This document shows positions 5,463 to 35,076 of a DNA stretch of 35,376 nt, piece by piece (the stretch's first letter is position 1; the number at the start of each line of letters is the position of its first letter). This DNA comes from Candidatus Zambryskiibacteriota bacterium (GTDB taxonomy: Bacteria > Patescibacteriota > Minisyncoccia > Phycocordibacterales > DATDWN01). Below the pieces are notes generated by a model that had not been told where the DNA came from, did not search any database, and saw only the letters and a program-made list of their open reading frames with translations. The stretch spans positions 1 to 35,376 of the forward strand of contig JACQNQ010000028.1 in assembly GCA_016202965.1 (NCBI GenBank). Reading direction: 5' to 3'. A program made the position numbers and the translations under genes.

Positions 5463-6020
5463 TTAATACGTTAACGTTACTCCTCTCTCAAAGCGTCGGG
5501 AAGCCGATGTGTCGCAAGTGTTATACCCCCTGGAATCCACCGTGGTGCGTCCGTCTGACAATTTCGTCACTCTGACAATAGCGCATCCTTTTGCAAAACT
5601 TAACCAAAAAATACTGGTTGGACGCGTGTTGCCTCCTCCGCCAATTAAACTTGGCTGTGCCGGTATTGTCGGTACTGTTTGATTATTTGGAGGATTGGTT
5701 GAAATGGTTTGACCATTACAACTAATTGTTTGGGTACTGGAGATATCAAAAGCGCTTTTAGGAGCATTGGCGTTCGGAGGGTTGGTATTTCTTAAATCCC
5801 AAAAGAAAGCGCACTCCGCGCCGCTGTCAGCTGAATAAAAAGCGTATTGCGATTCCTCGGCGGCAAAAGTTAAAACCAGTTGTTTGACGGCAATATTGAC
5901 CACCACAAAACTGACAAGCAAAAGTATGGATGTGACAATAGTGGCAACAAGCAATGTGAAACCCCTACTCAAATTTGTTTTCGTAGTATGCAGTATTTCT
6001 TTGCTTTGTAATATTTTCAT
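5463..6020 (-). CDS. minor pilin / PilX-like pseudopilin (no Glu5)
   Basis: 185 aa. The N-terminus SRGFTLLVATIVTSILLLVSFVV resembles a prepilin leader plus hydrophobic helix but lacks E at +5. It is the last gene of the pilin cluster. Confidence 0.65.
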   Translation of the reverse strand: MKILQSKEILHTTKTNLSRGFTLLVATIVTSILLLVSFVVVNIAVKQLVLTFAAEESQYAFYSADSGAECAFFWDLRNTNPPNANAPKSAFDISSTQTISCNGQTISTNPPNNQTVPTIPAQPSLIGGGGNTRPTSIFWLSFAKGCAIVRVTKLSDGRTTVDSRGYNTCDTSASRRFERGVTLTY

Positions 6021-6121: not shown

Positions 6122-6661
6122 TCATTGATGATTAAAAAGTAACTCGCTGATTTGGAACGACTTAGTGACGCCTCTATTTAACCAGCTGATATTAATCAGC
6201 GCTTTAACTTCACTGGCTGAAATTGATTGAAACTGTATCTCGCGCTTAAAATTTAACTGCGTCCAGCCGGAAGTGTAACCGTAAAGACCGGTGGACGGAC
6301 TCTGTCTTATGTTCGGACAAGAGCCAAACCCGCCGGAGCAAGCGGCTGTGGTTTTTAAGGGAGAGTCAATGGTGCATGTTTTGCCAAAAAAACACGGGTC
6401 TCCCGCGCTAGCTGAAAGTGAAGCCAGCCAGTTTGTCGGCGTTCCGCTTACGGAACGCAAAGCATTTTCATCCCGGATGTTTCTGATAAATTCCATTCCT
6501 TCTTGAGCAAGCCAAAAAGCGGTTACTTGGTCTTTGGCTATTGTGGAGGATTGAATGCCGCTTTGCACCGCCGTAAAAGTGGCGGCAATGGACATAGTCA
6601 AGATACTAATGGCCACAAGCGTTTCAACTAGTGTGAAACCTCTAGAGAATTTTGTTTTCAT
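6122..6661 (-). CDS. type IV minor pilin / pseudopilin (prepilin-type N-terminal cleavage/methylation domain)
   Basis: 179 aa. MKTKFSRGFTLVETLVAISILTMSIA contains the G|FTLxE motif plus a hydrophobic helix. Confidence 0.8.
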   Translation of the reverse strand: MKTKFSRGFTLVETLVAISILTMSIAATFTAVQSGIQSSTIAKDQVTAFWLAQEGMEFIRNIRDENALRSVSGTPTNWLASLSASAGDPCFFGKTCTIDSPLKTTAACSGGFGSCPNIRQSPSTGLYGYTSGWTQLNFKREIQFQSISASEVKALINISWLNRGVTKSFQISELLFNHQ

Positions 6662-6878: not shown

Positions 6879-7442
6879 TTACTGGAAATCAAAGAGACGT
6901 TGAGATACGGTTGTTTCGAGAGTAAATGTCGTCTGACTTGTCGGTTTTAGTCCGGCAAAACCGGAAACCACAATTATAACCTGCGGCTGAAGTAAATTCA
7001 CGCCATTGGAATACGGAGCCGAACCGAAAACTCTGAAGGCCAGGTTGGTAATGGTCACATCCGGTGAAGTGATTGGGTAATAATCCGCGCTGTTTGTTGA
7101 TTTCTCAATACGGCCGGAGTTTAGTCTATATGTTGTCGTCAGCCCATTAAACAATACGGCCATCGTGTCAGACGGGTTATTGTTGCCACAATCCTGCGGG
7201 GTCGTTATCGGTACCGCTCCGCCCGGTCCGCAGTGATAATTTTGTCCAAAACGAATGGACCTGGTCATAGATTCCATTGTTGAATTAAGGTTATCCATAA
7301 CAGCCCGGAGAGTCTGGGATTTCCTGTTAGCGTCAAGAACGGAGAGAATTGAACCCGTACTTAAGACCATAACAACGCTAAAAATAGAAACTGCAACCAT
7401 TATTTCTATAAGTGAAAAACCTTTAGAAAACTTTACTTTCAT
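6879..7442 (-). CDS. type IV minor pilin / pseudopilin
   Basis: 187 aa. MKVKFSKGFSLIEIMVAVSIFSVV carries the G|FSLIE prepilin motif. Confidence 0.8.
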   Translation of the reverse strand: MKVKFSKGFSLIEIMVAVSIFSVVMVLSTGSILSVLDANRKSQTLRAVMDNLNSTMESMTRSIRFGQNYHCGPGGAVPITTPQDCGNNNPSDTMAVLFNGLTTTYRLNSGRIEKSTNSADYYPITSPDVTITNLAFRVFGSAPYSNGVNLLQPQVIIVVSGFAGLKPTSQTTFTLETTVSQRLFDFQ

Positions 7443-15404: not shown

Positions 15405-16538
15405 ATGAAACAACAAAAAATCAAAGGGGAAGGTTCTTATCTGGCTACCGAGTGTGATAAAGTTGGCGAGATTGCTTTGCATTACGGTTTTACCATAATC
15501 AAGCCGCCACAGATTAGCCCTTCGGATATTTCCAAAGCCAAGCAATTCAAGGATTTTGACTACTACAACGACGTCGAAGAAAAAGTGGCTTTAACCAGTT
15601 GGTATATTGATCGCGACCTTCACAACCAAAGTCAGCTGATAGCTATTCATTATAAAAAACCGCGCGAAAATTTATACAGTTTTGAGATTATGGGCAGTGA
15701 CAAAAGCATCAGCGAAGGACTGCTTTTAAAATGCGCTTTGGCGGTACTCTATGAACTTGGCTGGACAAATCTATATATAGACATAAACAGTATCGGGGAT
15801 AAAGAGTCGGTCGGAAAATTTGAACGAGAACTCGGAGCTTACTTTCGCAAACACACCCATACATTGTCGGCAAAATTAAATCAAAAATTCAGAAAAAATC
15901 ACTATTCTATACTGACTGATAACTCGCCTGAGAGCCAATCTTTCAGACAAGACGCTCCACAAACGGTTGGCTCACTGTCCGATATTGCCAGAGTCCATTT
16001 CAAAGAAGTTCTGGAGTTTCTGGAAACATTCAGTGTCGCTTATAAAATCAAACCGAATGTCTTATCCAATAAACTTTACGCTTCATATACCGTTTTTGAA
16101 ATACGAAACGATGACCAGTTATTGGCTTACGGTTACAGATACAACCACTTGGCCAGAAAAATTGGAGCAAAAAGAGATATACCGTCTGTCGGTCTGACGG
16201 TCCTGGTCAAAAAACAACCGAAGTTTTCCAAAAAAGTCATCATCAAAAATATAAAGAAACCGAAATTTTATCTGGTTCAACTCGGAGAAACGGCCAAACT
16301 GAAAGTTTTAAATGTCATAGAGATGCTTCGCAGGGAAAAAATTCCCGTCTATCACTCCATAACAAAAGATAAAATGGTGGGACAGCTTTCCGGCGCTGAA
16401 TATATGAAAGCTACACACGTTTTGGTCATGGGACAAAAAGAAGCTGTGGAAAACACAATGATAGTCCGCAGCATTGCAAGCCGTGAGCAAGAAACCGTGC
16501 CTTTGGACAAACTTGTTAAATTTTTAAAAAAGTTATAG
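15405..16538 (+). CDS. HisRS-like class II aminoacyl-tRNA synthetase homologue with degenerate catalytic motifs
   Basis: 377 aa. HisRS-type layout: EGLLLKCALAVLYELGWTNLYIDINSIGD and a C-terminal HGTP anticodon-binding-like domain (FYLVQLGE...THVLVMGQKE...VRSI). HYKKPRENLYSFEIMG replaces motif 2 (RYERPQ.GR.RQF.Q). AYGYRYNHL replaces GGRYD.L. The motif 3 Gly/Arg pattern is absent. Confidence 0.6.
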   Translation: MKQQKIKGEGSYLATECDKVGEIALHYGFTIIKPPQISPSDISKAKQFKDFDYYNDVEEKVALTSWYIDRDLHNQSQLIAIHYKKPRENLYSFEIMGSDKSISEGLLLKCALAVLYELGWTNLYIDINSIGDKESVGKFERELGAYFRKHTHTLSAKLNQKFRKNHYSILTDNSPESQSFRQDAPQTVGSLSDIARVHFKEVLEFLETFSVAYKIKPNVLSNKLYASYTVFEIRNDDQLLAYGYRYNHLARKIGAKRDIPSVGLTVLVKKQPKFSKKVIIKNIKKPKFYLVQLGETAKLKVLNVIEMLRREKIPVYHSITKDKMVGQLSGAEYMKATHVLVMGQKEAVENTMIVRSIASREQETVPLDKLVKFLKKL

Positions 16539-21254: not shown

Positions 21255-21560
21255 TTAATCTGGAAGAACTTCACAACAGTCTTTGTCAAAAACGAGAACT
21301 GAAAAATTAAGGGTACTTTGCTCTCGGAGTTTTTCCCACCATCTTCGTGCTTCAGGACTTTTGATACCGAGTTCATTCATGGCAACAGTCCAAGAGACTT
21401 CATACCCACCAAACCACGCGAGCTTACCAGTCACAGCCCCGACTACAGGGTCATCAGTTTTAAGATTACACGACAGAACCAAACCGATCCATTCGTCTCT
21501 GATTTCCTCAGGAGCTTCTCCTTTAGGCCGAGATGTGATGCAAATAAATCCTTGTGGCAT
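21255..21560 (-). CDS. SD-led small orphan protein (101 aa)
   Basis: AGGAGGTG lies 4 nt before the ATG. GC content is visibly higher than in neighbours. I recognise no family. The two overlapping plus-strand ORFs lack any start context. Confidence 0.7.
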   Translation of the reverse strand: MPQGFICITSRPKGEAPEEIRDEWIGLVLSCNLKTDDPVVGAVTGKLAWFGGYEVSWTVAMNELGIKSPEARRWWEKLREQSTLNFSVLVFDKDCCEVLPD

Positions 21561-29917: not shown

Positions 29918-30837
29918 TCTTTAAGCGCTAAATTGGCTAGTTTTAGTATTGCCTCTTTTGTTTTCGCCACCGCTATAAACCGACCATTGTGACAAAAAAC
30001 TGACCCTGGCACGCCGGTCACTTTTTCTAATTTCTCATCTCGGAGTCCTGCCCAAGCTTGTGGCAAATCTTTGCGCGCTCCGTCATATGACAGAACATTT
30101 TCCCGGATGGTTTTCAGTGTCCAATCATTATCAACTCGTTTTTTATAAGTCACAAAAAGCGGCTCCGGAAATCGCAGGAGTACTTCTTCCCATGGATATC
30201 TTTCGTCAAGTATGATAAGTCTTTTATCCTCAGCTTTTTCGTATGCTTCCACCACTAGGCGTTCGGCTTCTTTTTGGTCTGTGATTGTTATAATCGCCCG
30301 GGTAATAATGGCTTTGGCGTAGGAAACCACTTCCATAAATAACACGTCGATATTCACTTCTTCTTTCCATGTAGGTCTAAATATATAAAACAGCGAACGG
30401 ATATCAAACGGATATACATCCTTAATTACCGGCTGAAAAATATTTATACCGTTGTCGTTGGCATCAATCGGCTCGACGAGCATTTTGTCAATTTTTTGCG
30501 AAACTTCCCTGTCGCCGCATAATGCCATACCAAATTTTTTCCAAACCAAACCAAACGATGAATACAAAATCCCATTTGGCCTGCCGCCCGCTCCGCCTCG
30601 CTGATGATGGTCAAAACGATTTCTATCCGGGTCGTAGACATCGCCGGTGTCAATGACATAATCACCTGTGGCATGAATATTCGGGTCGCGTGAACGCAAG
30701 ACAGTGATTTCATGGTTTTTTTCCAAAAGAAGAAACAACGCGGCAACGGCAAACACATCATCTACATGAAACTTGGAGCTGTGGGTTACTATTTTAATCT
30801 TTTTGTTCTCTTCCATTTTTTGATTTGTAATAAACAA
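29914..30837 (-). CDS. MYG1/UPF0160 family metal-dependent hydrolase
   Basis: 307 aa. KIVTHSSKFHVDDVFAVAAL and FDHHQRG motifs. Confidence 0.8.
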   Translation of the reverse strand: MFITNQKMEENKKIKIVTHSSKFHVDDVFAVAALFLLLEKNHEITVLRSRDPNIHATGDYVIDTGDVYDPDRNRFDHHQRGGAGGRPNGILYSSFGLVWKKFGMALCGDREVSQKIDKMLVEPIDANDNGINIFQPVIKDVYPFDIRSLFYIFRPTWKEEVNIDVLFMEVVSYAKAIITRAIITITDQKEAERLVVEAYEKAEDKRLIILDERYPWEEVLLRFPEPLFVTYKKRVDNDWTLKTIRENVLSYDGARKDLPQAWAGLRDEKLEKVTGVPGSVFCHNGRFIAVAKTKEAILKLANLALKD

Positions 30838-31351
30838 TACTCAATCCTATCAAATATGCGAAAACAGTAAATGCCATAAAAGGTATGGTGATGTAACCGT
30901 ACTCCAAAACATAAACCCGGGCGCATTCACCGCCAACTGATGTGCAACCGACAAGTGAACCTTCAAGTCCCCAATTGACAAGCGATTGGTAGAAAGAAAC
31001 AATAGCGCCGAGAATGGAAAGAGGTAAGAGATAATCAACAATGTTTTTATCCTTTTTAATCATCGCTACAAAAGCCAGAATGGCTTGCGGATACATAAAA
31101 ATTCTCTGAATCCAGCATAAATCGCACGGAGGAAAACCAACAATTTCCGAATACGAAAGACTGCCGATTGCCGCCCCGAGTGAAGCCAAAAATAATAACT
31201 GAATAATATATTTGTAAACGAAATTATATATCCATATTCTGAACTTCCTCTCTATAATAAGAAGTGTAAGAACAACGATAAAAACAATGTGAGATACAAG
31301 AGTAAGCGTGGTCACAAAAAAAGTGATGTGAGTTTGAATAAAGTGAATCAT
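30794..31351 (-). CDS. disulfide bond formation protein (DsbB/BdbC-like)
   Basis: 185 aa, four TM segments. First Cys pair in PPCDLCWIQRIFMYPQ, second pair in GCTSVGGECARV. Confidence 0.8.
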   Translation of the reverse strand: MIHFIQTHITFFVTTLTLVSHIVFIVVLTLLIIERKFRIWIYNFVYKYIIQLLFLASLGAAIGSLSYSEIVGFPPCDLCWIQRIFMYPQAILAFVAMIKKDKNIVDYLLPLSILGAIVSFYQSLVNWGLEGSLVGCTSVGGECARVYVLEYGYITIPFMAFTVFAYLIGLSIVYYKSKNGREQKD

Positions 31352-31490
31352 AATATAAAGAATATCATAACTTCATATATGATACGAAATGAAACGGCCG
31401 TCTCATTTTGTACACATTTAGATAACAAGAGCAAATATAATTATAATTGTAAATGTAATTGGATAAATTGTGAGAAAGTTAAATTTAAAC

Positions 31491-31520
31491 AAAAGAGAAA
31501 GCCCGGTGGTTAGTCGGGCT
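31491..31520 (-). terminator. intrinsic terminator ending the small-ORF island
   Basis: The minus strand reads AGCCCG-ACTAACCAC-CGGGCT followed by TTCTCTTTTGTTT. Confidence 0.6.
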
Positions 31521-31533
31521 TGTGTTTATGATG

Positions 31534-31686
31534 CTATTTGTTGATTTCATACCTGGCCTTTTTGCCGCACCACGGGCAAAACCAGTATTTTTTGTTTTTT
31601 CGCGCGTCGCCGATGCTCCACCACTTTTTGCAAAGTCTGCATTTAAAATGGTGGAGTGATTCAACAGACCGGTCCACCTGTTTCAT
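31534..31686 (-). CDS. 50-aa zinc-ribbon protein (CxxC...CxxC), translationally coupled
   Basis: MKQVDRSVESLHHFKCRLCKKWWSIGDARKNKKYWFCPWCGKKARYEINK. Its ATG directly abuts the TGA of the upstream ORF (TGAATG). It is below the ORF-track cutoff. Confidence 0.6.
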   Translation of the reverse strand: MKQVDRSVESLHHFKCRLCKKWWSIGDARKNKKYWFCPWCGKKARYEINK

Positions 31687-32013
31687 TCAAGCCACCCTTA
31701 AGTAAGCAGTTGGATGAGAACGGTATTCGTGGCGGCCGTATATGGTGATGAGCTTTTCTTCGGGCTCTCTGTGATATTTCACCTTGATACGCCCCTCATC
31801 AGTTTTGGCAGAGCCACTAACCCAAATTACCAGGTTTTCTCCTCGTGAACGGAGGTATAAGAAACATCCCCCATTCGCCGTCTGAGCTCCGATAACAGAC
31901 ATCTCCTTGTTGTTCATGCGATACGCCTGAAAGCGAGCAAACCGTTCCGCCAAAATACCGATGCGAAACATCCATTCAAATTCTCGAAAAAATCTTTTCC
32001 AAAATTTCTTCAT
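31687..32013 (-). CDS. orphan small protein (108 aa from the SD-led ATG)
   Basis: GGAG lies 6 nt before the ATG at 32013; the ORF track opens at a TTG at 32025. Basic, aromatic-rich N-terminus MKKFWKRFFREFEWMFRIGILAERF, then a beta-rich-looking domain. I recognise no family. Confidence 0.65.
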   Translation of the reverse strand: MKKFWKRFFREFEWMFRIGILAERFARFQAYRMNNKEMSVIGAQTANGGCFLYLRSRGENLVIWVSGSAKTDEGRIKVKYHREPEEKLITIYGRHEYRSHPTAYLRVA

Positions 32014-32050
32014 GTTTTTCTCCAAAGAACAAATTTTAAACCTGGGATTT

Positions 32051-32111
32051 CTCCCACCAAAATTTTTAAATTTTAAAAACTTTGGTGGGAGCCGAACAAA
32101 TTGCGTTCGGC
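32051..32111. terminator. tandem hairpins separating the first and second island ORFs
   Basis: CTCCCACCAAA...TTTGGTGGGAG (11 bp) followed by GCCGAAC-AAATTGC-GTTCGGC (7 bp). Confidence 0.55.
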
Positions 32112-32142
32112 TTTGAAAGAACTATCGGGTTGATCAATCTAA

Positions 32143-32478
32143 CTAACGATGCTGAGCTTGTGTCCCTCGCCAGTCCAGTTGGCTTTCTCCCGCGTAGCCG
32201 ATACAGATAATTCTTTCTTCACCATCGCTCCTTTTAATACGGAGATGATGGCTAGAGTTATCCGGCATCCATTCGGTTACGGTGTACGTGCCGGGAGTGA
32301 GTGGACTGCTTTGATGATGACATCCTTGAATTGGCTCTGTCACCACAAAAGTTGTACCTACTTTGGGAGAGAAAACATCACAGCAACTTTTGTAGGTGCC
32401 AAACTGAGCAACAAGGTGGTCGCGAACTTCGAAAGCTTCGTCCATACAAAACGCTTGTACCTTTACGGGCGGTAGCAT
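32143..32478 (-). CDS. orphan Cys/His-rich small protein (111 aa)
   Basis: AAGGAGGA lies 3 nt before the ATG, downstream of a consensus promoter. MLPPVKVQAFCMDEAFEVRDH... contains several Cys and His-His pairs. The antisense 108-aa plus-strand ORF has no start signals. Confidence 0.7.
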   Translation of the reverse strand: MLPPVKVQAFCMDEAFEVRDHLVAQFGTYKSCCDVFSPKVGTTFVVTEPIQGCHHQSSPLTPGTYTVTEWMPDNSSHHLRIKRSDGEERIICIGYAGESQLDWRGTQAQHR

Positions 32479-32500
32479 ATATCCTCCTTTTCTAAATCAA

Positions 32501-32528
32501 ATTATACAGGAATAAAGAACTTTGTCAA
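32501..32528 (-). promoter_or_regulatory. consensus sigma70 promoter (TTGACA-16 nt-TATAAT)
   Basis: The reverse complement gives TTGACA at 32523-32528, a 16-nt spacer and TATAAT at 32501-32506, with TG immediately 5' of the -10. It lies 14 nt beyond the secA stop. Confidence 0.7.
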
Positions 32529-32541
32529 GGTTAAAATAACC

Positions 32542-35076
32542 TTATTTTAAGCTATTGTTAGACATAAATTTCTGATGCTCTTCAGAATTAATAAGTCCGC
32601 AGATTTTGTATTTTTTGCCAGAGCCGCAGAAACAGGGTTCGTTTCGGCCTACTTTTGGATGTGACGGGGCAGGTGCAGGTTGTGTAACTTTGACACTTGG
32701 CACATTTTCAAAACCTTCTGTCACTTTTGTCGGAGCATTGGCAAAAATATTTTGCGGTTGTATTTGTGGAATAAGTTTTAAAATTTCTTCATTAATGGCA
32801 ATTTCCATTTCTTTGAAAAGTTTCAGTCCTTCGCGTTTGTACTCCACTAACGGGTCGCGTTGGCCATAAGCGCGCAAATTGACACTGGAGCGCATATAAT
32901 CCATTACTTCCAAATGTTCCACCCAGAACATATCCATAACCTGCAATATGACTCTTCGCAGTGTTTGAATGTACTGCGGGTCAGTTTCAGAAACCACACC
33001 AAGTGAGCTCGTTGCTACGCCGCCCGCACTCGGTGAGGTTTCTATCAGTTCCAAAATGTAATTTTTGAGCTGTTGGTCCGTCCCTGTCAGAATTTCTCGA
33101 CGTCTTTGATACATTATTTTTCTCTGAAAATTCAAAACATCGTCAAACTCCAAAACGTGCTTGCGGGCGTCAAAGTTAAAGCCTTCTATTTTTTCTTGAG
33201 CGCTTTCAAGTGACCGGGTGATGATGCGATTTTCAATCGGCTCGTCTTCCTTGACCCCGAGTCTGCCCATCATATTTTTTATGGTATCCCCTCCAAAAAC
33301 CCGCATTAAATGGTCGTCAAGAGAAACAAAAAACTGGGTCTCTCCCGGGTCGCCCTGTCTGCCGGAGCGTCCTCTCAACTGATTGTCTATGCGGCGAGCA
33401 TCATGACGCTCCGTGCCCAAAACAAAAAGCCCGCCCAAAGATTTGACTTTTTGGTAAGATTCAATATCACCGGGAGTGCCGCCGAGTTTTATATCCACTC
33501 CTCGGCCGGCCATGTTAGTGGCAATGGTCACTGCTCCAAGTTTTCCGGCTTGAGCGATAATCTCACCTTCTCTGGCATGATTTTTAGCATTCAGTATTTC
33601 ATGAGGAATGCCTTCGGCTCGTAAATATTCTGAAAGCAATTCATTCTTTTCAATTGAAACAGTACCAATAAGAACCGGCTGGAGAAGAAGATGGCGTTTT
33701 TTAATTTCCCTGCCGATGGCCTTGAACTTGCCGGCTTCCGTTTGAAAAATAAGGTCGTTTTCATCTTTGCGGATAGTCGGTTTGTTTGTCGGCACGGAGA
33801 CCACTTTCAGTCCGTAGACTTTGTAAAACTCTTCCGATGATGTGGCGGCCGTTCCGGTCATACCGGACAATTTTTTATACAATCGGAAGTAATTCTGAAA
33901 TGTGACCGAGGCAAAAGTCCTTGATTCTTTCTGAATAGGAACATGTTCTTTGGCTTCTATGGCCTGATGCAGACCTTCCGACCAGCGCCGGCCAGGTTGG
34001 AGTCGTCCCGTAAATTCATCGACAATAATAACCTCATCACTATTCACAACATAATCCTTGTCTTTATGAAATAAAGCTCTAGCCCGAATAGCCGTTTCCA
34101 AGTGGTGAACATATTTAATGCCTTTTTCGGTATATATATTGTCTATGCCTAAAATTTCTTCCACTTTGCTTATGCCAGAGTCGGTCAAAGAAATAGTTTT
34201 GAACTTTTCATCCACGGTATAGTGCTCGCCTTTTTCAAGTTTGGTGGAAATATCGGCAAATCTCCTGTAAAAGTCGTCGGATTCACCCGCCGGAGCGGAA
34301 ATAATAAGCGGAGTGCGAGCTTCATCGATTAAAATGGAGTCCACTTCGTCAACCACCACAAAATTCGGTTCTCTCTGTCTTAGTTGGTTCGCTTCGTATT
34401 CAATATTGTCGCGCAGATAATCAAAACCGAACTCATTATTTGTCCCATATGTAACATCAGCCAAATAAGCTTCTTTGCGAGTGCATGGTCGCAGAAATTC
34501 AGTGACCACTTTAAAAGTTCCGCGCTCATCACGCTCTTTATCCAGCTCTGTATGCTTCGGGCTGGCCTCGATTCGGCGAAGCGGGTCATATATAAAAGAT
34601 TCGTCGTGATTTATAACTCCGACCGAAACTCCCAAGAATGAATAAATTTGTCCCATTAAGACTGCGTGCAATCGCGAAAGATAATCGTTGACCGTAACCA
34701 AATGAACGCCGCGACCGGTTAAACTGTTCAGATACAACGGCAGGGTTGCCACGAGAGTTTTTCCTTCTCCGGTGCGCATCTCGGCTATGTTCCCCTGATG
34801 CAAAATGATTCCTCCCATAAGTTGAACATTAAAATGACGCTGGTTCAATGTCCGTTTAGAAGCTTCCCGGATTACAGCAAAAGCTTCGGGTAAGATATCA
34901 TCCAAGGTCTCACCTTGTACTAGACGTTTTTTGAATTCGTCTGTTTTTTCTCTTAGAGCCTCATCCGACAAAGCAGAAATACCGTTCTCTAGAGCGTTTA
35001 TTTTGAGGACTATAGGCTGTATTTCTTTCAAAGCTCGTGTTGTATCAGAGCCGAATAGTTTACTTATAAACGACAT
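32542..35076 (-). CDS. secA: preprotein translocase ATPase SecA
   Basis: 844 aa. Walker A MRTGEGKTLVATLP, DEAD-like VVDEVDSILIDEARTPLIIS, GTERHDARRIDNQLRGRSGRQGDPG, and a C-terminal Zn-binding tail CFCGSGKKYKICG. Confidence 0.97.
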   Translation of the reverse strand: MSFISKLFGSDTTRALKEIQPIVLKINALENGISALSDEALREKTDEFKKRLVQGETLDDILPEAFAVIREASKRTLNQRHFNVQLMGGIILHQGNIAEMRTGEGKTLVATLPLYLNSLTGRGVHLVTVNDYLSRLHAVLMGQIYSFLGVSVGVINHDESFIYDPLRRIEASPKHTELDKERDERGTFKVVTEFLRPCTRKEAYLADVTYGTNNEFGFDYLRDNIEYEANQLRQREPNFVVVDEVDSILIDEARTPLIISAPAGESDDFYRRFADISTKLEKGEHYTVDEKFKTISLTDSGISKVEEILGIDNIYTEKGIKYVHHLETAIRARALFHKDKDYVVNSDEVIIVDEFTGRLQPGRRWSEGLHQAIEAKEHVPIQKESRTFASVTFQNYFRLYKKLSGMTGTAATSSEEFYKVYGLKVVSVPTNKPTIRKDENDLIFQTEAGKFKAIGREIKKRHLLLQPVLIGTVSIEKNELLSEYLRAEGIPHEILNAKNHAREGEIIAQAGKLGAVTIATNMAGRGVDIKLGGTPGDIESYQKVKSLGGLFVLGTERHDARRIDNQLRGRSGRQGDPGETQFFVSLDDHLMRVFGGDTIKNMMGRLGVKEDEPIENRIITRSLESAQEKIEGFNFDARKHVLEFDDVLNFQRKIMYQRRREILTGTDQQLKNYILELIETSPSAGGVATSSLGVVSETDPQYIQTLRRVILQVMDMFWVEHLEVMDYMRSSVNLRAYGQRDPLVEYKREGLKLFKEMEIAINEEILKLIPQIQPQNIFANAPTKVTEGFENVPSVKVTQPAPAPSHPKVGRNEPCFCGSGKKYKICGLINSEEHQKFMSNNSLK

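Follow-up and report, generated by a model that had tools for sequence, protein, structure and literature searches.

A 35,376-nucleotide (nt) contig of Candidatus Zambryskiibacteriota bacterium (GenBank assembly GCA_016202965.1, contig JACQNQ010000028.1, forward strand), referred to here as the window, carries a block of about one kilobase between secA and a dsbB-family gene. The block holds three small open reading frames (ORFs) on the minus strand, which we call genes A, B and C. The window is contig 11 of the host assembly (G000), a metagenome-assembled genome (MAG) of 0.42 Mb in 41 contigs that is 78% complete, with relatives of 0.5–0.9 Mb; the closest named ones put it among the Parcubacteria (CPR). 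The features of the locus are as follows, from secA towards dsbB.

32542..35076, minus strand: secA, ancestral upstream partner of gene C; the gap to C is 855 nt here.
32501..32528, minus strand: consensus sigma-70-type promoter of gene A, with TTGACA at 32528–32523, a 16-nt spacer and TATAAT at 32506–32501 (12 of 12 positions match).
32482..32489, minus strand: AAGGAGGA, a Shine-Dalgarno (SD)-like motif 3 nt upstream of the gene A ATG (read from the sequence).
32143..32478, minus strand: gene A, encoding a 111-amino-acid (aa) Cys/His-rich protein of a sparse, unnamed family of proteins of about 120 aa (supported by homologues and by the ratio of nonsynonymous to synonymous substitution rates, dN/dS).
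32106..32142, minus strand: conserved stretch directly 3' of the gene A stop codon (comparison with locus L005).
32051..32111, minus strand: two adjacent hairpins in the A-B spacer, a 7-bp GC stem at 32111–32091 and then an AT-rich palindrome with 20-nt arms at 32051–32091 (folding and inverted-repeat search).
31687..32013, minus strand: gene B, encoding a 108-aa protein, with GGAG at 32023–32020, 6 nt upstream of the ATG at 32013 (supported by a homologue and dN/dS).
31534..31686, minus strand: gene C, encoding a 50-aa four-Cys zinc-ribbon protein (CxxC-17-CxxC) of a conserved Parcubacteria family (family search).
31487..31521, minus strand: intrinsic-terminator-like stem-loop with a T-rich tail that closes gene C, stem at 31499–31521 (terminator scan).
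30794..31351, minus strand: DsbB-family gene (Pfam DsbB, 6.4e-12).

The promoter of gene A begins 13 nt past the secA stop codon and is the sole perfect site within 31300–32650. Genes A and B lie 129 nt apart, and the spacer, taken as 141 nt for the folding, reaches −42.2 kcal/mol (z = −5.1); the arms of its palindrome are 95% complementary, the palindrome is unique within the host genome, and the hairpins, which have no downstream U-run, would act as a terminator. The ATG of gene C directly abuts the TGA of gene B (TGAATG), and an AT-rich spacer of about 180 nt (31352–31533) separates C from the DsbB-family gene. The stem that closes gene C was scored by the terminator scan on the plus strand only, and the minus-strand tail, TCTCTTTT, was read by eye from the sequence. 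These features bear out the original prediction, made from the letters alone, which had listed the perfect promoter, strong SD sites before A and B, ORFs of 111, 108 and 50 aa, two strong hairpins, the TGAATG junction with a CxxC...CxxC zinc ribbon and a closing terminator. It had also described the block as visibly richer in G+C, which holds against the genome as a whole (0.443 compared with 0.407), but the contrast is modest, as the adjoining secA stands at 0.436; the individual values are 0.485 for A (in the top 3% of ORFs), 0.459 for B and 0.451 for C. The idea of a hidden RNA gene in this richer block was rejected, as Rfam gives only tRNAs in the window and the codon-position patterns are those of protein coding. 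None of the three genes has a paralogue in the host genome.

Gene A has two close homologues, one of 71% identity in a Candidatus Zambryskibacteria MAG and one of 67% identity on a short ENA contig, while gene B has a single known relative, 68% identical, on a 638-bp ENA contig (locus L004). In a codon-level comparison with locus L005, gene A gives a dN/dS of 0.11, with differences mostly at third positions and synonymous sites near saturation; for gene B the value is 0.21, with changes likewise concentrated at third positions and synonymous sites near saturation. The start of A at 111 aa is backed by the conserved N-termini of its two homologues, and the homologue of B begins at the same place as the 108-aa reading frame. 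These ratios and the dominance of third-position changes show A and B to be real coding genes under purifying selection. Some 40 nt directly 3' of the gene A stop codon (32106–32142 in the window, 1669–1708 in L005) are identical at about 35 of 40 positions between window and L005, which makes this stretch better conserved than the synonymous sites of gene A (proportion of synonymous differences, pS, 0.66 in the same comparison). No ORF or known RNA motif accounts for it.

Searches of Pfam, NCBIfam, PHROGs and PADLOC returned nothing above threshold for A or for B, and from PADLOC no match at all. Both genes are absent from 36 same-genus and 24 same-order genomes, and neither has a match among IMG/VR viral contigs or GenBank phages; gene B has none in 61 relatives, and two scans of JGI metagenome contigs for it were empty. 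Among 400 sampled genomes of the class a single match to A (E = 0.001), its frame broken by an in-frame TGA, and two borderline matches to B (E = 0.004 and 0.008) were not counted as relatives. Sequence-profile searches of the PDB with A, B, the wider A family and the C family gave only noise. The expectation that A and B would show no confident homology to ordinary families is upheld by the four family libraries.

A wider family of gene A was obtained from a full HMMER scan of 1.84 billion representative proteins with a profile of A, which gave 49 proteins at the cut-off of E ≤ 1e-3. An alignment (A4) of 42 of the 49, 97–165 aa in length, and three close sequences, nearly all of which align over most of their length, has the consensus HL..EFG....C.C.V..P..G..F.V.EP.QTCH...LPPG.Y.V...SH...L....G....C.GY......DWRG. 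The members of this family sit in changing surroundings. The homologue in L005 lies between parB and an unrelated membrane protein plus topA, with its own promoter, an AAGGAGG leader and a terminator, and the remoter family genes on six contigs have different housekeeping neighbours, for example RNase J/TrpRS, a position after EF-Ts, or AspRS alongside. The relative of gene B in L004 comes after a GspE-like gene and has its own TTGACA promoter and GGAGG, a terminator 9 nt past its stop codon, and no zinc-ribbon gene after it. At one locus (L072, 2059–7828) two A-family paralogues and several small unknown ORFs adjoin an AAA_15/AAA_21 ATPase and a large serine recombinase, a region that may be a mobile or defence island.

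Gene C has a different distribution. When A, B and C were compared by tblastn with the DsbB loci of relatives only C was found, in four same-genus genomes at 56–63% identity. The gene order in L017 and L018 is secA, C, a thioredoxin-like gene and dsbB, and in L019 and L025 C lies upstream of the thioredoxin-like gene and dsbB, a secA match being absent from those two loci. A six-frame genome search with a profile of the family detected it in 41 of 301 same-order genomes, representing 31 of 190 genera. The proteins are 43–60 aa long and have the signature E.L.HF.C..C.KWW[ST][IV]GDAP....W[FY]CPWCG; residues C16, C19, C37 and C40 are invariant across 28 sequences, and the window protein retains each of the 11 residues that never vary in the family. 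Its pair of CxxC knuckles, set at ribbon spacing and shared by the homologues, identifies C as a zinc ribbon. Its Pfam matches are to generic zinc ribbons and all sub-threshold, no family in NCBIfam, PHROGs or PADLOC reaches threshold, and no match was found in IMG/VR. A word-indexed protein search for C returned nothing, and because even the window's own copy was not returned, this suggests that gene calling had missed it.

The usual neighbour of the family is secA, which lies immediately upstream of C in 9 of 29 other sampled loci, or in 11 loci when L017 and L018 are included. In these 11 loci the start of C overlaps the secA stop by 8–17 nt in six and lies no more than 8 nt from it in three, with gaps of 62 and 181 nt in the others. 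The C start codon falls inside the conserved secA ..KxCHG.. codons in L017, L018, L042, L045, L049 and L056. In other genomes the next gene after the C-family member is uvrA or a NUDIX gene (L057, L059, L069; L053, L055, L065). Gene C is, by these comparisons, a resident gene native to the host lineage, because its family occurs in 41 of the 301 same-order genomes, usually neighbours secA and is found at the same locus in four same-genus relatives. Since C tightly follows secA in relatives, and genes A and B together occupy here an 855-bp gap that splits the ancestral secA-C pair, the TGAATG junction is read as a renewal, with B, of the close coupling that C ancestrally has to its upstream gene, and not as the sign of a B-C module. 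The three genes had been called orphans that looked foreign or specially expressed. Both descriptions suit A and B, which belong to no family of the four libraries searched, are rare and richer in G+C, and carry signals that core genes lack, but neither suits C.

The site itself changes from genome to genome. The secA-dsbB gap ranges within the genus from about 450 bp, where it holds a thioredoxin-like gene alone, to about 1440 bp, and its cargo includes an unnamed family of 166–200 aa, PP2C-like, PaaX-like and NUDIX proteins and an IS200/Y1-like protein. Judged by gene content, the junction is a variable slot within the genus, and the proposal that it might be empty in relatives does not hold. 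A membrane-anchored thioredoxin-like gene (..FYGAFWCPHCQ..) directly precedes dsbB in all 22 same-genus loci. The host genome is the only one examined that has no such gene before dsbB (compared with L012–L031), the AT-rich spacer at 31352–31533 being found in its place, and no copy exists elsewhere in the 78%-complete assembly.

Two further observations concern the slot. The 166–200-aa family, which carries the motif NSLDYHHGVDAFFWW.GAYVTIDVS and has no Pfam match, lies upstream of the thioredoxin-like gene and dsbB in L013, L014, L022, L025, L026, L028 and L031. Duplicated remnants of the secA 3' end (..KNCGLINSPEHEKNMAKKQ; ..aaacattgtcatgg..) are present beside cargo in L030, at −547 to −431 relative to dsbB, and in L019, upstream of gene C, which suggests repeated rearrangement exactly at the secA terminus.

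We consider it likely that the block is a mosaic, in which the sporadic accessory genes A and B have been inserted between secA and the native gene C, rather than a three-gene module. The resident gene C would ancestrally have lain directly behind secA, often with its ATG within the last secA codons, and an 855-bp segment with two unrelated accessory genes would have landed between them in a variable slot. Genes A and B could be independently mobile or sporadically retained moron-like cassettes, because each is solitary elsewhere in a different genomic context. Transcription would start at the promoter of A and be attenuated by the two hairpins, with B and C expressed from that transcript or from one that reads through; C would be translated by termination-reinitiation at UGAAUG, and its ancestral coupling to secA would have been replaced by coupling to B. 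The last codons of gene B are AAGGGTGG here and CAGAGTGA in its homologue, and the AAGGGTGG ending may now aid initiation of gene C.

Several points weigh against this account. The boundaries of the A-B segment show neither repeats, direct or inverted, nor an integrase or att-like sites, A and B are adjacent in the window, and the distribution alone is compatible with differential loss from an ancestor. The AlphaFold2 models are of low confidence, with a predicted local distance difference test (pLDDT) score of 58.8 for A (3 sequences) and 48.3 for B (2 sequences). In addition, a terminator element of about 75 nt that follows the A homologue (L005, 1735–1810) is about 85–90% identical to that which follows the B homologue (L004, 556–638), and this common element, which is single-copy in the one genome searched, may hint at past linkage of A and B.

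The terminator element is among the evidence for an alternative in which A and B, whether C is included or not, moved as a single functional unit, and the copies that stand alone elsewhere are products of decay. The two genes are only 129 nt apart, no promoter for B passed the consensus scan in the window, and a 59-aa ORF follows the second A homologue, that of 67% identity on the ENA contig. Yet a second A-B pair was not found, strong hairpins stand between A and B, and on the six contigs no B-like neighbour lies beside the A-family genes. Gene B also has no match in the genome that holds the A homologue of L005, an incomplete assembly of about 0.5 Mb in which an empty result proves little. 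We regard a joint transfer as unlikely, and the neighbourhood comparison similarly does not support the view that the trio travels together, as A, B and C are separable.

A long residence of A and B in the lineage, with loss from nearly all relatives rather than insertion here, would fit the purifying selection on both genes, the lack of insertion scars, and an A family that is ancient and widely scattered in small-genome bacteria. Against such differential loss, neither gene occurs in any of the 36 same-genus genomes, the overlap of secA and C in many families shows the undivided arrangement to be the ancestral one, the SD sites and G+C content of A and B differ from those of core genes, and the neighbours differ at every A-family locus. 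This makes loss on such a scale quite improbable.

The original prediction had raised, as speculation, another possibility, a toxin-antitoxin, defence or regulatory module made up of B and C, in which the zinc ribbon is the translationally coupled partner. The TGAATG junction is the feature that invites this reading, and C does have weak matches in PADLOC, to a type II methyltransferase (E 3e-5) and to PDC-M14A (E 9e-5), and to a Lar-like family in PHROGs (0.0024). The PADLOC matches, however, span only 36–40 residues of generic CxxC knuckles in models of 633 and 152 aa, and no PADLOC model is matched over most of its length by A, B or C. Gene B has no PADLOC, Pfam or PHROG match, neither gene matches a toxin or antitoxin family in Pfam, NCBIfam or PADLOC, and the pairing is not conserved: some 40 genomes have C but no B, mostly with C coupled to secA, the only relative of B stands alone with its terminator 9 nt past the stop, and no co-occurrence of B and C was found outside the window. 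A B-C module is on this evidence very unlikely. Least credible is an assembly chimera of the 855-bp segment within the MAG, for which the 41 contigs and 78% completeness might speak, since both flanks are syntenic with relatives, so that two precise chimeric joins would be required, the B stop abuts an intact C start, and the segment is single-copy in the assembly.

The observation that core genes in the window have no SD site holds genome-wide. An SD core of at least 4 nt is found for 10.8% of host ORFs compared with 13.2% at control positions, which is no enrichment, and within the window only A, B and the ORF at 21255–21560 have one. A TA[TAC]AAT element instead forms a sharp peak at −12/−13 from the ATG, in 38 of 365 ORFs of the host genome, with G depleted upstream. 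A peak that begins at −12 is the signature of leaderless mRNAs, and many core genes look leaderless; examples in the window are 5463–6020, 6122–6661, 6879–7442 and 15405–16538. A recurrent motif of the type CTTTATAA..TTTATAAACTAAAT lies directly upstream of several starts. The 16S rRNA gene of G000 (contig position C38:1067-5510) ends in ...GGGGAACCUGGUCGUGGAAUAAUUCAAUUUGAA (tail ...GUGGAAUAAUUCAAUUUGAA), with no CCUCC as read, and that of a same-order relative, G039 (L084), ends in ...GUGGAUUAUUUCAAAUUGAA, again with no CCUCC as read; 3' tails were read in these two genomes, and the assembly with the A homologue of L005 does not contain the 16S 3' end. Two interruptions split the G000 gene, one an insertion that follows model position 1387 and the other, behind ...AAGUCGU, a group I intron that carries a LAGLIDADG-type ORF. 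On this reading of its leaders, the host genome does not use SD sites for core genes.

A small class of SD-led ORFs exists nevertheless. With an SD core of at least 5 nt it comprises 38 of 470 ORFs of at least 70 aa (about 8%), which are shorter (median 109 against 194 aa, p = 4e-7) and richer in G+C (0.436 against 0.408, p = 7e-4) than the others. Judged by eye from the N-termini, with no search of family libraries made, none looks like a housekeeping protein. Gene A and the ORF at 21255–21560 belong to this class, and B, with the 4-nt GGAG, fits the pattern but falls below the 5-nt cut-off. Other examples are C2:1662-2259, C29:70-375 and C41:3290-3616, the second of these being an SD-led paralogue of the 101-aa window ORF at 21255–21560. 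On six other contigs an A-family gene has a GGAGG-type leader while the flanking housekeeping genes do not. The SD-led leaders together with the G+C content support a foreign status for A and B.

How such leaders would be read is a matter on which we can offer only a tentative proposal. Either the SD-like leader is recognised in some way that does not involve the canonical 16S anti-SD, in which case these genes would be a separate accessory expression class, or SD-led genes are continually re-imported from an SD-using mobile pool; separately, and as tentatively, the C family may be a SecA-coupled export micro-protein. If the SD motif is functional, the apparent lack of a 16S anti-SD and the leaderless core genes alongside a distinct class of SD-led small genes would point to an unrecognised second mode of translation initiation in ultra-small bacteria. 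If it is not, SD motifs would be signs of recent import with which gene flow could be charted. As for the island, it is a commonplace example of how orphan accessory genes come to lie in a variable slot, and setting the toxin-antitoxin interpretation right spares a false lead. The C family consists of unannotated zinc ribbons of 43–60 aa, often missed by gene callers, whose start overlaps the secA stop in several Parcubacteria families, and is put forward as a candidate for a conserved micro-protein with a link to the export of proteins. Both this family and the SD-led class are better leads than the island.

Some features of the proteins can be predicted. Gene A probably encodes a small protein of the cytoplasm that depends on a metal or thiol and has a beta-barrel core, because of its near-invariant Cys, its TCH and SH motifs and the barrel of the model. 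Foldseek searches of that model against PDB and BFVD gave generic SH3-like barrels only (E ≥ 0.01, with matches at E of about 0.05). For gene B the model would place a long, basic, aromatic N-terminal helix before a beta-meander.

Of the known families, DUF5675 (PF18925), which has been reported to have a C82/L,D-transpeptidase-like fold (2026 preprint, 10.64898/2026.04.11.717860), shows a weak likeness to the A family. Three of 43 A-family members match it weakly (best E 0.0037), and the common stretch is [IL]P.G.Y.V, a hydrophobic strand and G[NY]; no member reaches the Pfam gathering threshold, however, and the window protein has no match. Alignment of the family with one true DUF5675 domain by hhalign gave a probability of 10% over 40 columns. 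By eye, as the hhalign alignment ends before this point, the His of the DUF5675 IHAGN motif would face a Cys of the A family. The QGC Cys of the single DUF5675 domain used for comparison, which would be catalytic by analogy with YkuD-type enzymes, is not kept in the A family, where DWRG is followed by a variable residue. With no member at threshold and an hhalign probability of 10%, a DUF5675 identity for gene A has no clear support.

Small stand-alone zinc ribbons (Zn_ribbon_8, HVO_2753-like and CoiA_N) resemble gene C in its two CxxC knuckles 17 residues apart and its length of 43–60 aa. No such family reaches threshold with C, however, and the KWW..GDAP..W[FY]CPWCG signature and the overlap with secA are specific to its group. 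Type II toxin-antitoxin pairs with a zinc-ribbon antitoxin exist, MqsRA for example, and like B and C these are two small neighbouring genes, in which the stop codon of the first abuts the start of the second and one gene encodes a zinc ribbon. They differ in that B and C do not co-occur elsewhere, carry no toxin or antitoxin signatures, and include in C a conserved resident that is normally coupled to secA.

The closest comparison for A and B is with the morons or ORFan islets of phage genomics, autonomous promoter-gene-terminator cassettes inserted between conserved genes. A and B differ from these in that they sit in no phage or prophage context, being flanked by secA and dsbB and without an IMG/VR or GenBank phage match, and a single A-family locus, L072, lies beside a serine recombinase. 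The likeness is that gene A and the relative of B each stand as one small gene equipped with a promoter, a ribosome-binding site and a terminator of its own, an arrangement found for A in the window and in L005 and for the relative of B in L004, though window B has no promoter that passed the scan. Like morons, A and B also have an atypical composition, a sporadic distribution and neighbours that change from one genome to the next.

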